A program made the position numbers and the translations under genes. DNA of 64,000 bases from a virus. A model generated the notes under the pieces. It did not search any database. It was given only the letters and a program-made list of their open reading frames with translations, and was not told the DNA's origin. Each line of letters opens with the position of its first letter. The first letter of the stretch is position 1. The stretch lies in UHGV virus genome UHGV-1372088; one strand, 5' to 3'. Below, one piece after another: positions 2,072 to 48,043 of this stretch.

Positions 2072-3163
2072 CTACAGCGATCTGATTGTGGCGGCGATAG
2101 CATCTATCATCTTTAAGTTTTCTTCGGTGGGGTCACTCGCCAGCTCAGCAATACGCGCTCTAAGCCTTTCTTTTGCCAGACTTGTTTGATCTGTAGGCTT
2201 TTTGATCTCAGGCGGTATAGCATCCACTTCACTGACGGTCTTCAGCTTCGGATTGCGGTGATGGATGCTGAAAAACACTGACCGGTTTTTCTTTATTTCC
2301 GAGTAGGACAGGTAGCCGAGTTCCTCCAGCGTCTTCATTCCCTTCCTGACAAGCTGATTCTGTGAGTAGATGCTCTTGTTGCCGAAGTTCAGACGCGCTC
2401 TGAGACGCGCCAGGGATATGGGTATGGGGTTGGCTGGCAAGCTCTCAATAAACGTGTACAGCGCTTGTGCTGTCTCTTTACGGGGCAGCTTCTGAATGAC
2501 TTTCAGCTGCAACAGAACCTTATGGTCGAATTGGTACAGCTCTTTGAGACGCTTTTCGGCTTCAAACGAAATAATGCCAGTCTCTTCGTTGTAGTCGACG
2601 TTGTTCAGCAGATGAACCATCTTCATGACGATTTTGTTTGAGCCGTCTTCGTTCTTCGTCTCCAGAGTTTTCTGGAATGAGACGGTGGCGGACATAATTT
2701 TTCTGAGGCTGTTTAGCACCTTTTCTCGCAGCGTTTTTCTCAATCTTGACGAGGGATACCCGCAGTATTTGGCGAACTGCGTGATACTCATCTCCACGCG
2801 GCCAGACTCGTCGCCGAAATCAGCCAACCCTCGAACAATGCCGACCCACGTCTTGAAGTCTGAGTCCATATCCAGGCGGCTTCCTGTTATCTTTATGTCA
2901 GTGAAGCCCTCTGATTTGGCCGTTTCGAGCTGAATGAGCTCTTCAGTCGCGTCGATGACTGAACCTTTTTTGTTGTTGCGGTTGTTTGTCGACTTCAGTG
3001 TCGGCACGAAAAGACCGAGACGCATAAGCGCAATGGGTTGCACTGTATTCTGGTCGTTGGGCTTTAGGTTCCCTGTGTATTGATTTTGAACAATTTCTAA
3101 CTCTTCGATGAGATCGTCATCTATCTTGATGTTTTTCTTTGCTATTTTTTTTCTTTCTGCCAT
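2072..3163 (-). CDS. putative iteron-binding replication initiator (Rep-like), about 363 aa from MAERKK
   Basis: The only large minus-strand gene in this area. It is bracketed on both sides by arrays of the same 17-19 bp iteron and followed by a GATC cluster and DnaA box. The protein is basic/Lys-rich. The call rests on this plasmid-like context, not on sequence similarity. Confidence 0.5.
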   Translation of the reverse strand: MAERKKIAKKNIKIDDDLIEELEIVQNQYTGNLKPNDQNTVQPIALMRLGLFVPTLKSTNNRNNKKGSVIDATEELIQLETAKSEGFTDIKITGSRLDMDSDFKTWVGIVRGLADFGDESGRVEMSITQFAKYCGYPSSRLRKTLREKVLNSLRKIMSATVSFQKTLETKNEDGSNKIVMKMVHLLNNVDYNEETGIISFEAEKRLKELYQFDHKVLLQLKVIQKLPRKETAQALYTFIESLPANPIPISLARLRARLNFGNKSIYSQNQLVRKGMKTLEELGYLSYSEIKKNRSVFFSIHHRNPKLKTVSEVDAIPPEIKKPTDQTSLAKERLRARIAELASDPTEENLKMIDAIAATIRSL

Positions 3164-46507: not shown

Positions 46508-46585
46508 TGGTTTTATAAGTATGTGTATACTTACCGTGCTTTAGATTAAGCACCCACAATTAAAGGTAAAAGGAGTTTACCGACA

Positions 46586-47077
46586 ATGGCTAATACCCAT
46601 GTAAAGAATATCAAGTTAGGCGCCTGTGCTGTTTCTTTCGGCGGCACCGATCTTGGCTACACCAAAGGCGGTGTTGAGGTAGAGATTTCCACCGAGACGC
46701 TGAAAGTCACCGTCGACCAGCAGGGCCAGACCACTCTGTCCGAGCTGGTTCAGGGTCGTAACGTCAAAGTTACCGTTCCGCTGGCCGAAAGCGTTCTGGA
46801 GAACATCGTCAACCTGATGCCTGGCTCTACCATTAGCACGGATAAGAAATCCATCTCCATCACCACCGCTCAGAGCGTGAATCTGATCGACGTGGCGCAG
46901 CAGCTGGTTCTTACCCCGCAGGATGGCACCGACTTCATTCTGACCCTGCCGAAAGCGGCCACCGCCGGCAACTTCACTATGGCGTATAAGTTCGATGACG
47001 TCCGCGTGTTCTCTGTCGAGTTCAATGCGTACCCGGATGACGCTGGTGTTTTGGGTAGCCTCACCAGCCCAAAGTAA
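46586..47077 (+). CDS. major tail tube protein (gpV N-domain-like, 163 aa)
   Basis: Position, size and strong SD (AAAGGAG). Followed in the -1 frame by a Big_2 domain, as in lambda gpV. Confidence 0.6.
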   Translation: MANTHVKNIKLGACAVSFGGTDLGYTKGGVEVEISTETLKVTVDQQGQTTLSELVQGRNVKVTVPLAESVLENIVNLMPGSTISTDKKSISITTAQSVNLIDVAQQLVLTPQDGTDFILTLPKAATAGNFTMAYKFDDVRVFSVEFNAYPDDAGVLGSLTSPK

Positions 47078-47331
47078 GTGTGACGGGTGTGACTGTGGCG
47101 CCGGCAACTGCGTCGGTCAGGGTCGGTGCAACGACCACGCTGGCCAAAACAGTTTCCCCGTCTAACGCTGACGATCAAACCGGCACCTGGACATCCAGTA
47201 ACCCTGCCATCGCAACCGTTGATACCAAGGGCGTTGTGAGAGGGGTTGCCGCCGGTAATGCAACGGTGACGTTTGTTACGAAAGATGGTGGCTTCTCTGC
47301 CAAGTCTACCGTGACTGTGACGGCATCTTAA
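47059..47331 (+). CDS. Big_2 Ig-like domain in the -1 frame relative to the tube gene (candidate frameshift extension, 83-90 aa)
   Basis: Frame opens at 47059. Slippery heptamer C_CCA_AAG at 47068-47074, immediately before the tube stop codon. The domain reads VTVAPATASVRVGATTTLAKTVSP...ATVTFVTKDGGFSAKSTVTV. Confidence 0.5.
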   Translation, partial: PHQPKVSVTGVTVAPATASVRVGATTTLAKTVSPSNADDQTGTWTSSNPAIATVDTKGVVRGVAAGNATVTFVTKDGGFSAKSTVTVTAS

Positions 47332-47375
47332 TCAAATCAAGGCCCAGAAATGGGCCTCTTTAACGAGATAAAAGT

Positions 47376-47693
47376 ATGGCTAAGTTACTAAATCTGGACA
47401 CGCTGGTTCCCGCCGTTAAGCAGGTTCAAATCGGCGGAAAGCAATATCCGATTGTAGAGATGAGTGTAGGTCTGTTCGCGGAAATTAAGCGCTTCGAAGG
47501 TAGCGAAATTGAATCCATGAGCATTGCTGATCAGGTTGCTGCGTATGCGGTTCTGGTTCAGAAGCTGATTCCCTCTCTGCCGCAGAATGTGTTGGACGAT
47601 CTCTCCGTTATCAACCTTCAGCAAATTTTCACCTTCGCACTGAACGTTGCGGATGAAACGAACGAAGCCGCCGCTGGCGACGAAGTAAAGTAG
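47376..47693 (+). CDS. tail assembly chaperone (gpG-like)
   Basis: 105 aa acidic protein between the tube and tape measure genes. Confidence 0.5.
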   Translation: MAKLLNLDTLVPAVKQVQIGGKQYPIVEMSVGLFAEIKRFEGSEIESMSIADQVAAYAVLVQKLIPSLPQNVLDDLSVINLQQIFTFALNVADETNEAAAGDEVK

Positions 47694-48043
47694 AAACCCG
47701 CGATGAATCCGATGAGGTGGTTTTGTCCATCGACTTCGGGTTCTATTTCAGTCGTGTAGCTGCTTATTACTCCTTGCCACCGAAACAACTACTGGAAATA
47801 CCGCTTGAGACATTCTGGATGATGAGTCGAAACATCGAACGAATCCAGTCAGAGCGCGACTTGAGAGATTTTCAGGTCGCCAGGGTCGCTCAGGCCGGTG
47901 TTGAAGATGCTAAGGCGTTCATGGAGGGTTTGCAGCTAAGGATTGGAAGACCTGTCATCACTGATAGGGTGTACAACCCAGAACGAGTCAAAGCAGACCC
48001 TGACGCCAAAGCGCAATTAATGGCAGTCTTTGGAAAAGGATAG
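47657..48043 (+). CDS. gpT-like ORF in the -1 frame, overlapping the 3' end of the G-like gene
   Basis: Frame opens at 47657, which is 37 nt before the G-like stop. An independent GTG start at 47717 is also possible. No canonical slippery heptamer was seen. Confidence 0.35.
   Translation, partial: NERSRRWRRSKVETRDESDEVVLSIDFGFYFSRVAAYYSLPPKQLLEIPLETFWMMSRNIERIQSERDLRDFQVARVAQAGVEDAKAFMEGLQLRIGRPVITDRVYNPERVKADPDAKAQLMAVFGKG

Follow-up and report, generated by a model that had tools for sequence, protein, structure and literature searches.

Structural genes of several phages are followed by an immunoglobulin (Ig)-like domain that is reached by frameshifting. In SPP1, ribosomes that change frame at the end of the tube gene add a C-terminal Ig-fold domain to gp17.1; the short protein and the longer gp17.1* both assemble, at a ratio of about 3:1, and the added domain is dispensable (PMC8718954). 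Ig-like C-terminal extensions made by frameshifting were also described for Lactobacillus phage A2, for the T3 capsid protein, and for the Listeria phages A118, A500, and PSA, and it was proposed that Ig domains spread by recombination, in or out of frame, with frameshifting rescuing the out-of-frame ones (PMC5009743). In the lambda G/GT system, frameshifting fixes the proportion of the short to the long product (PMC5009743). Here, we addressed a tail tube gene in a 64,000-nucleotide (nt) stretch of the virus genome UHGV-1372088 (the whole stretch is referred to as the window), which belongs to an SSU5-like Klebsiella phage-plasmid. An Ig-fold (Big_2) domain was encoded out of frame right after this gene, its -1-frame extension starting with the final base of the tube's coding region. 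We consider it very probable that a programmed -1 frameshift at the end of the gene yields both a tube protein and a tube-Ig fusion; thus, the interpretation of a first-pass annotation, that a frameshift fuses the Ig-like domain to the tube, was supported in silico.

The probable shift site and its predicted products

The features of the junction in the window were as follows.

46586 to 47077, plus strand: zero-frame tail tube (major tail) gene, 163 amino acids (aa), 17.2 kDa, assigned from the open reading frame (ORF), phrog_1280, and fold matches
47059 to 47077, plus strand: overlap in which both the zero and the -1 frames are open, bounded by a -1-frame TAG at 47056 to 47058
47068 to 47074, plus strand: slippery heptamer C_CCA_AAG, CCA occupying the P site and AAG the A site, from the X_XXY_YYZ register and the zero-frame codons
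47074 to 47331, plus strand: predicted -1 extension of 85 codons plus TAA, comprising a Val-Ser linker and a Big_2 Ig-like domain, from the Big_2 match, gpV homology, and the ratio of nonsynonymous to synonymous substitution rates (dN/dS)
47075 to 47077, plus strand: zero-frame stop TAA directly 3' of the heptamer, which terminates the short product, read from the sequence
47080 to 47082, plus strand: GTG, a Val codon in the fusion and the candidate start if translation reinitiates, invariant in the lineages with a split gene
47082 to 47162, plus strand: predicted RNA structure, a candidate frameshift stimulator, from folding and minimum free energy (MFE) z-scores

The tube ORF closed with the codons AGC CCA AAG TAA. 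A re-reading of the sequence confirmed that, as had been claimed in the first-pass annotation, CCCAAAG at 47068-47074 lies in the X_XXY_YYZ register with TAA directly after it and the -1 frame is open from 47059 on; this frame follows its TAG at 47056-47058 and runs to a TAA at 47329-47331. The frame change must fall in 47059-47077, because this is the only stretch in which both frames are open, and the heptamer was the sole slippery motif within it. Translation of the -1 slip joined ...LTSPK to VSVTGVTVAP and thereby reproduced the previously predicted junction SPKVSVTG; the segment of the predicted product across the junction reads ...GSLTSPKVSVTG..., and the peptide VSVTGVTVAPATASVR can be derived solely from -1 reading 5' of the GTG at 47080. 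The Big_2 domain assigned earlier to the -1 frame was recovered (Pfam, E=9e-21), but its size of 83 aa applies only from GTG 47080, and 85 aa are encoded from the junction. Similarly, the proposed layout of two products stood, whereas the size of the fusion, given before as about 26 kDa and 163 plus 83 aa, was corrected to 248 aa and 25.5 kDa, compared with 17.2 kDa for the short product. CCCAAAG itself occurred 10 times in the window against 8.2 expected, an enrichment that was not significant, and CCCAAAGTAA occurred once against 0.04 expected; thus, the significance of the site comes from its context and conservation rather than from the motif count.

We propose that most ribosomes would read AGC CCA AAG and stop at the TAA, releasing the 163-aa tube subunit, and that a fraction would slip back one base on C_CCA_AAG. 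This slip might occur by joint movement of the Pro and Lys tRNAs from CCA/AAG to CCC/AAA, or by movement of the P-site Lys tRNA from AAG to AAA with the stop codon unread in the A site; the TAA at 47075-47077 may act as a "shifty stop." After the slip, GTA AGT GTG and the following codons would be read, adding a two-residue linker and the Big_2 domain and giving a 248-aa gpV-like tube-Ig subunit. RNA structure 6-7 nt downstream probably pauses the ribosome, raising the slip rate, and the resulting tail would be a mix of mostly bare and some Ig-bearing tube subunits, as in SPP1. We infer the production of the fusion protein, the ratio of the products, and the roles of the stop codon and the stem. 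Klebsiella is expected to share the Lys tRNA set of Escherichia coli. The window contained no tRNA gene, and an element-encoded Lys tRNA therefore need not be considered. In E. coli, C_CC.A_AA.G is the most efficient -1 heptamer measured, with 54% frameshifting when combined with the IS3 pseudoknot and about 0.3% by itself, and the 3' context can lift the unstimulated level about 12-fold (PMC4066793). The review by Atkins likewise describes C_CC.A_AA.G as highly shift-prone and relates this property to the presence of just one Lys tRNA in E. coli (PMC5009743).

Because Pfam and Protein Data Bank (PDB) sequence searches with the tube protein gave no match, a fold search was needed for its identification. 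The top PDB fold matches of its AlphaFold model (predicted local distance difference test 81, predicted template modeling score 0.73) were almost all tail tube or tube-like proteins and included the TTP polymer, phage Sf11, the monocin tube, a gene transfer agent, YSD1, and T5; the lambda tail tube (8k36) was lower in the fold list and matched the model weakly. The order of the genes was Neck1/tail completion, tail terminator (PF12691), the tube ORF, two small chaperone-like genes, and a tape measure gene of 1541 aa. On this gene order and the fold matches of the model, we assigned the upstream ORF as the tail tube (major tail) gene. The tube ORF matched phrog_1280 (E=6e-89), a profile of 248 positions named "Ig domain containing protein," of which the tube ORF covered positions 1-163 and the -1 ORF positions 164-246. 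Residues 2-85 of the -1 product aligned with lambda gpV 159-246 (2l04, 9mfe, 6p3e; E 2e-7 to 1e-5). Since the -1 product aligned with the C-terminal domain of gpV and follows a tube of about 160 aa, the fusion would have the two-domain layout of gpV; this architecture, already claimed in the first pass, was borne out by the full-length match of gpV residues 159-246 to the -1 Big_2 domain.

Conservation of the junction in split and fused lineages

The plasmid CP037443.1 (Klebsiella sp. PO552 plasmid p2) matched the window at 100% across the region tested, and three other Klebsiella plasmids, two from Australia and one from the United Kingdom, showed 99.5-99.8% identity to the window region. The junction CCCAAAGTAAGTGTGACGGG was identical in all four of these independent assemblies (Nigeria, Australia n=2, United Kingdom), and the sole length difference among them was in the upstream intergenic region. 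The nearest named phages were the SSU5-like phage-plasmids SSU5, Cyrano, PhiR41_1, and Klebsiella phage ST13-OXA48phi12.3, with about 75-77% protein identity to the window in the tube part. Megablast of the region against a phage collection and complete E. coli genomes gave no match, and relatives of the locus were obtained solely through a protein search and the plasmid collection.

Among these relatives, nine distinct lineages carried the split gene, namely the window and those labeled L009, L046, L048, L114, L116, L118, L121, and L123, which came from plasmids, IMG/VR, metagenomes, and Logan assemblies. All nine had a 163-aa tube ORF that ended in C_CCA_AAG with a stop directly after it, followed by an intact -1 Big_2 ORF of 84-87 codons, and the stop codon was TAA, TAG, or TGA in different lineages. 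Their tube proteins were 75-86% identical to that of the window, and the Ig ORFs of the split lineages shared 41-95% protein identity with one another. Only 10 of the 163 third-codon positions of the tube were invariant across the nine lineages, compared with three of three for the heptamer's own, and the residue before Pro-Lys varied (Ser, Ala, or Asn), yet its codon always ended in C. In the 135 nt examined around the junction, CCCAAAGT was the longest invariant run.

The fused relatives, in contrast, had a continuous gene. SSU5, Cyrano, PhiR41_1, and the ST13 phage carried a single ORF of 245-248 aa with the same Pro-Lys joint (...GPK-PVK...), and a further fused lineage, whose tube was 83% identical to that of the window, carried a continuous ORF of 253 aa with the same Ig subtype and a longer linker (TNPK-PNAGDASAA-VTGVAVNP). 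The heptamer positions varied in the fused lineages (CCCAAAG, TCCTAAA, CCCTAAA, CCCAAAA, CCAAAAG). The heptamer was thus invariant in split and variable in fused lineages, which indicates that it is held at the RNA level specifically where the frame change is needed. A different arrangement was seen in one SSU5-type locus, L108 (IMGVR_UViG_3300014614_000001), which read GGC CCA AAG CGG TGA and, through an apparent deletion, has its Ig domain in the +1 frame; unlike the conserved -1 split, this locus looks like a true mutant, which is likely, or a sequencing error.

Pairs of Ig ORFs showed a dN/dS of 0.11-0.34 wherever it could be estimated, and synonymous differences were near saturation in most pairs (proportion of synonymous differences 0.6-0.8). 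All indels in the -1 Ig ORF between lineages were in frame. The low dN/dS at near-saturated synonymous divergence, together with the in-frame indels, indicated that the -1 ORF is translated. None of the marks of a frameshifted pseudogene, that is, relaxed selection, downstream decay, and sporadic distribution, was found. In pairs between more diverged lineages, the Ig domain evolved faster than the tube, with proportions of nonsynonymous differences of 0.16-0.38 versus 0.06-0.16.

The 108 nt 3' of the heptamer were predicted to fold into a branched structure, with a closing stem between GACGGG (47082-47087) and CCCGUC (47157-47162) that starts 7 nt after the heptamer and is extended by pairing of 47089-47096 with 47149-47156. 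We compared the MFE of each sequence with those of 300 synonymous-codon shuffles in which the protein and the codon content were kept. The z-scores of the split lineages were -2.5, -0.6, -1.8, -2.0, -3.3, -3.1, -2.0, -3.5, and -0.9 (mean about -2.2; seven of nine at or below -1.8), compared with -0.7, +1.5, 0.0, -0.1, -1.3, -1.75, and +0.06 in seven fused controls (mean about -0.3). Positions +7 to +13 were paired at a probability of at least 0.97 in seven of the nine split lineages, and the predicted stem began at +7 or +8 in eight of the nine, with little positional covariation and a partner arm that differed in some; in particular, L114 used other complementary arms (UGGCGAG with CUCGCCA), and L123 formed a local hairpin at the same spacing. 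RNAalifold on five sequences gave nearly all pairs as invariant and 2 of 30 as compensatory; thus, covariation was unable to prove the stem. A shorter fold of 61 nt gave weak z-scores and missed the long-range stem. We therefore regard the predicted downstream structure as a likely stimulator and, given the weak covariation and the relatedness of the lineages, rate it short of proven. A Shine-Dalgarno-like stimulator upstream (GGG in Leu-Gly codons, about 11 nt before the heptamer) was also considered but did not convince, as the fused lineages conserve the same Gly.

Alternative explanations for the split gene

Several observations weigh against a programmed frameshift. The nine split lineages are statistically non-independent; many fused lineages also carry the heptamer with no need for a shift, which makes it partly an inherited feature of Pro-Lys coding; and covariation in the stem is scant, most pairs being invariant and the partner arm lying elsewhere in L114, L118, and L123. 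A literature search found no proteomic data on these elements and no protein or reporter support at the site. In addition, the locus tag of the tube gene was skipped in every plasmid gene table (e.g., BMD99_028105 and HV202_31100) among CP037443.1, CP110757.1, CP056499.1, NZ_CP155713.1, and NZ_CP103584.1 (L005, L006, and L008-L010). As these tables omit pseudogenes, the gaps imply that annotation pipelines apparently mark the gene as a frameshifted pseudogene. Finally, three observations concern GTG 47080: it was invariant in nine of nine split lineages, the equivalent codon in fused lineages being GTT, GTC, GTA, or GTG; the gap between the stop and this GTG was always 2 nt; and the Pfam Big_2 match starts exactly there.

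These last observations favor translation of the -1 ORF by termination-reinitiation or independent initiation at GTG 47080, which would make a free 83-aa (8.1-kDa) Big_2 protein not covalently joined to the tube, possibly with the N-terminus (f)MTGVTVAPATASVR ((f)Met-Thr-Gly-Val-Thr-Val-Ala-Pro...). In line with this, the Ig ORF is sometimes called alone by gene callers, and callers other than those behind the gene tables divided the gene into a 163-aa product and a stand-alone Big_2 protein (64-84 aa). However, neither the junction alignment nor the sequence contained a Shine-Dalgarno sequence before this GTG, and reinitiation leaves unexplained both the invariance of the three synonymous positions of the heptamer and the structured RNA at the spacing of a frameshift stimulator. 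Orthologues join the same domain covalently at exactly that point, and a free domain would have no apparent route into the virion. The conservation of the GTG may instead reflect the RNA stem, since most predicted folds pair the final one or two bases of this codon, although the stem sequence differs in L114 and L118. We thus consider a free Ig-like protein unlikely. The skipped locus tags, for their part, are what an inactivating mutation would give, in which the loss of 1 nt severed the Ig domain from a fused gene of SSU5 type and left the downstream ORF as an unexpressed remnant. Close relatives do have a continuous gene, the Ig domain of SPP1 is dispensable (PMC8718954), and a likely true mutant exists in L108. 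Against these points, nine lineages whose synonymous divergence is saturated all kept the -1 ORF intact, with the dN/dS and the in-frame indels given above, and among the 135 nt examined, conservation was highest at the junction. The purifying selection on the -1 ORF excludes a decaying pseudogene, the divergence of the nine lineages excludes that they are artefacts of one contaminating sequence, and we regard inactivation as highly improbable. An indel error in the CCC or AAA run, which the first-pass annotation itself had raised, would also account for the split, because an additional A or C in CCCAAAG would join the two frames into one continuous ORF; however, the junction was identical in the four independent complete plasmid assemblies, and the same split was present in many metagenome, IMG/VR, and Logan contigs of the eight other lineages. 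The chance of such an error is therefore negligible. Transcriptional slippage at the junction was rejected because the A run is just 3 nt. Taken together, a single recoded gene giving two products is more likely here than a pseudogene or two hypothetical proteins.

Neighboring features, evolution, and known systems

Further features outside the junction were noted in the window.

about 46570 to 46576, plus strand: ribosome-binding site AAAGGAG upstream of the tube gene
47339 to 47358, plus strand: GC-rich hairpin AAGGCCCA-GAAA-TGGGCCTC between the Ig ORF and the chaperone gene

The hairpin is located 3' of the Ig ORF and not of the tube stop, which is consistent with the tube and Ig parts forming one expression unit; its T run on the plus strand is just short, and a role as a weak terminator or as an RNA-stabilizing element after the major tail gene is possible. 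The chaperone gene (47376-47693) terminates with GAA GTA AAG TAG (shift site 47687-47693), and its -1 frame is open at 47657-48043 (about 116 codons), just upstream of the tape measure gene. The chaperone 3' end (GC or GT)A AAG TA(A/G) and a -1 ORF of about 116 codons were present in nearly all of about 110 related loci where the gene was found. The G/GT-type shift of this family thus appears to use an A_AAG tetramer with an adjacent stop rather than a full heptamer, and the chaperone gene, ending in A_AAG and a stop, carries the same local signal as the tube-Ig junction, which counts in favor of the frameshift proposed there. L009 (922-1380) and L010 (928-1377), from a lineage of about 79% nucleotide identity, had one more ORF, about 150 aa long, separating the tail terminator from the tube gene. 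The N-terminus of its product resembles a lipoprotein signal (MKKTFIALTLSVTFLVTGC...), and this ORF, absent from the window, looks like an inserted accessory gene.

Recoding-type motifs were also seen at the ends of distant tube homologues. In Moellerella (L125, about 2980-3090) and Xenorhabdus szentirmaii (L015, about 2980-3090), A_AAA_AAG was directly followed by the stop, and in Morganella psychrotolerans (L016, about 2950-3110) it stood one codon before the tube stop; the -1 frames in these three loci encoded hydrophilic, non-Ig tails of about 30-50 aa. X. hominickii (L014) had an A10 run in a continuous 173-aa ORF. These A_AAA_AAG sites and the A10 run may reflect recoding, transcriptional slippage, or chance. 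As the distant relatives in Moellerella, Xenorhabdus, and Morganella carry A_AAA_AAG at this position, a recoding site at the tube C-terminus may be ancestral.

In a rough neighbor-joining tree of the tube domain (representatives of L001-L127, no support values), the split lineages were paraphyletic, with the fused 253-aa lineage among the split ones and the split L114 beside the SSU5-type fused clade, which hints at more than one split/fused transition. An extension of this idea is that the Pro-Lys slippery site serves as a family-wide, two-way dial of Ig occupancy on the tail, with lineages flipping between states by single-base indels at the site; if so, the -1 shift would yield a minority of Ig-bearing subunits in split lineages and a minority of Ig-less subunits in fused lineages that keep C_CCA_AAG. 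We regard this dial as rather unlikely. Frameshifting in fused lineages to a truncated tube was not supported, since the heptamer varies and the downstream RNA structure is inconsistent. In fused loci that keep C_CCA_AAG (L001, L002, L011, L110, and others), the -1 frame stopped after one or two codons (PK-AG* or PK-A*), and fused lineages with the non-slippery TCCTAAA or CCCTAAA had 24-29 open -1 codons; this contrast is confounded by shared ancestry, and RNA structure was inconsistent among these lineages.

SSU5-like phage-plasmids occur frequently in clinical Klebsiella, E. coli, and Salmonella, and the annotation of this gene affects whether such elements are judged to be intact phages. 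The split and fused lineages also offer a natural experiment, in which the same Ig domain follows the same two codons and is carried on every subunit (fused) or probably on a fraction of them (split); their comparison permits a direct test of the effect of Ig density on siphovirus adsorption. If the frameshift operates as proposed, the locus shows that a pre-existing slippery site can rescue an out-of-frame domain landed by recombination.

The addition of Ig-like domains to phage structural proteins by frameshifting is already established, and the locus described here involves no new mechanism or principle; literature searches found no report of a frameshift at this site in SSU5-like phage-plasmids. 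Lambda gpV has the same arrangement of an N-terminal tube domain and a C-terminal Big_2 domain; however, gpV is a single in-frame ORF and all its subunits carry the domain, whereas in the window the zero-frame TAA at 47075-47077 separates the two domains, and the tube domains are related at the fold level only, with no sequence match. The lambda G/GT system belongs to the same tail module and likewise makes a -1 shift on an X_XXA_AAG-type site with a single enterobacterial Lys tRNA (PMC5009743). Its products differ from those predicted here in being chaperones that are not in the virion, and the lambda site is G_GGA_AAG. That site is not known to have an adjacent stop codon.

SPP1 shares with the window one tail tube gene with two products, here predicted, of which the longer has an Ig-fold domain. 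It differs in having an FN3 rather than a Big_2 domain, a Gram-positive host, and another shift signal, the SPP1 tube shift being +1. SSU5 gp012 and its relatives (phrog_1280) are orthologues of the tube gene, share 74-77% identity with it in the tube part, and have Big_2 after the same Pro-Lys; however, their ORF is continuous (245-260 aa), the heptamer is not conserved, and no consistent excess of RNA structure lies downstream. As in A2, T3, and the Listeria phages, a major structural gene is followed by an out-of-frame Ig-like domain that would be reached by recoding, and the pattern of split and fused genes matches the picture of in-frame and out-of-frame domains drawn in the review cited above. 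Those cases involve other genes and hosts, and the shift in the Listeria tail protein is +1. The A2 shift site is C CCA AAA. Unlike these phages, the SSU5-like elements have the fused and split states coexisting at the same junction within one closely related family.

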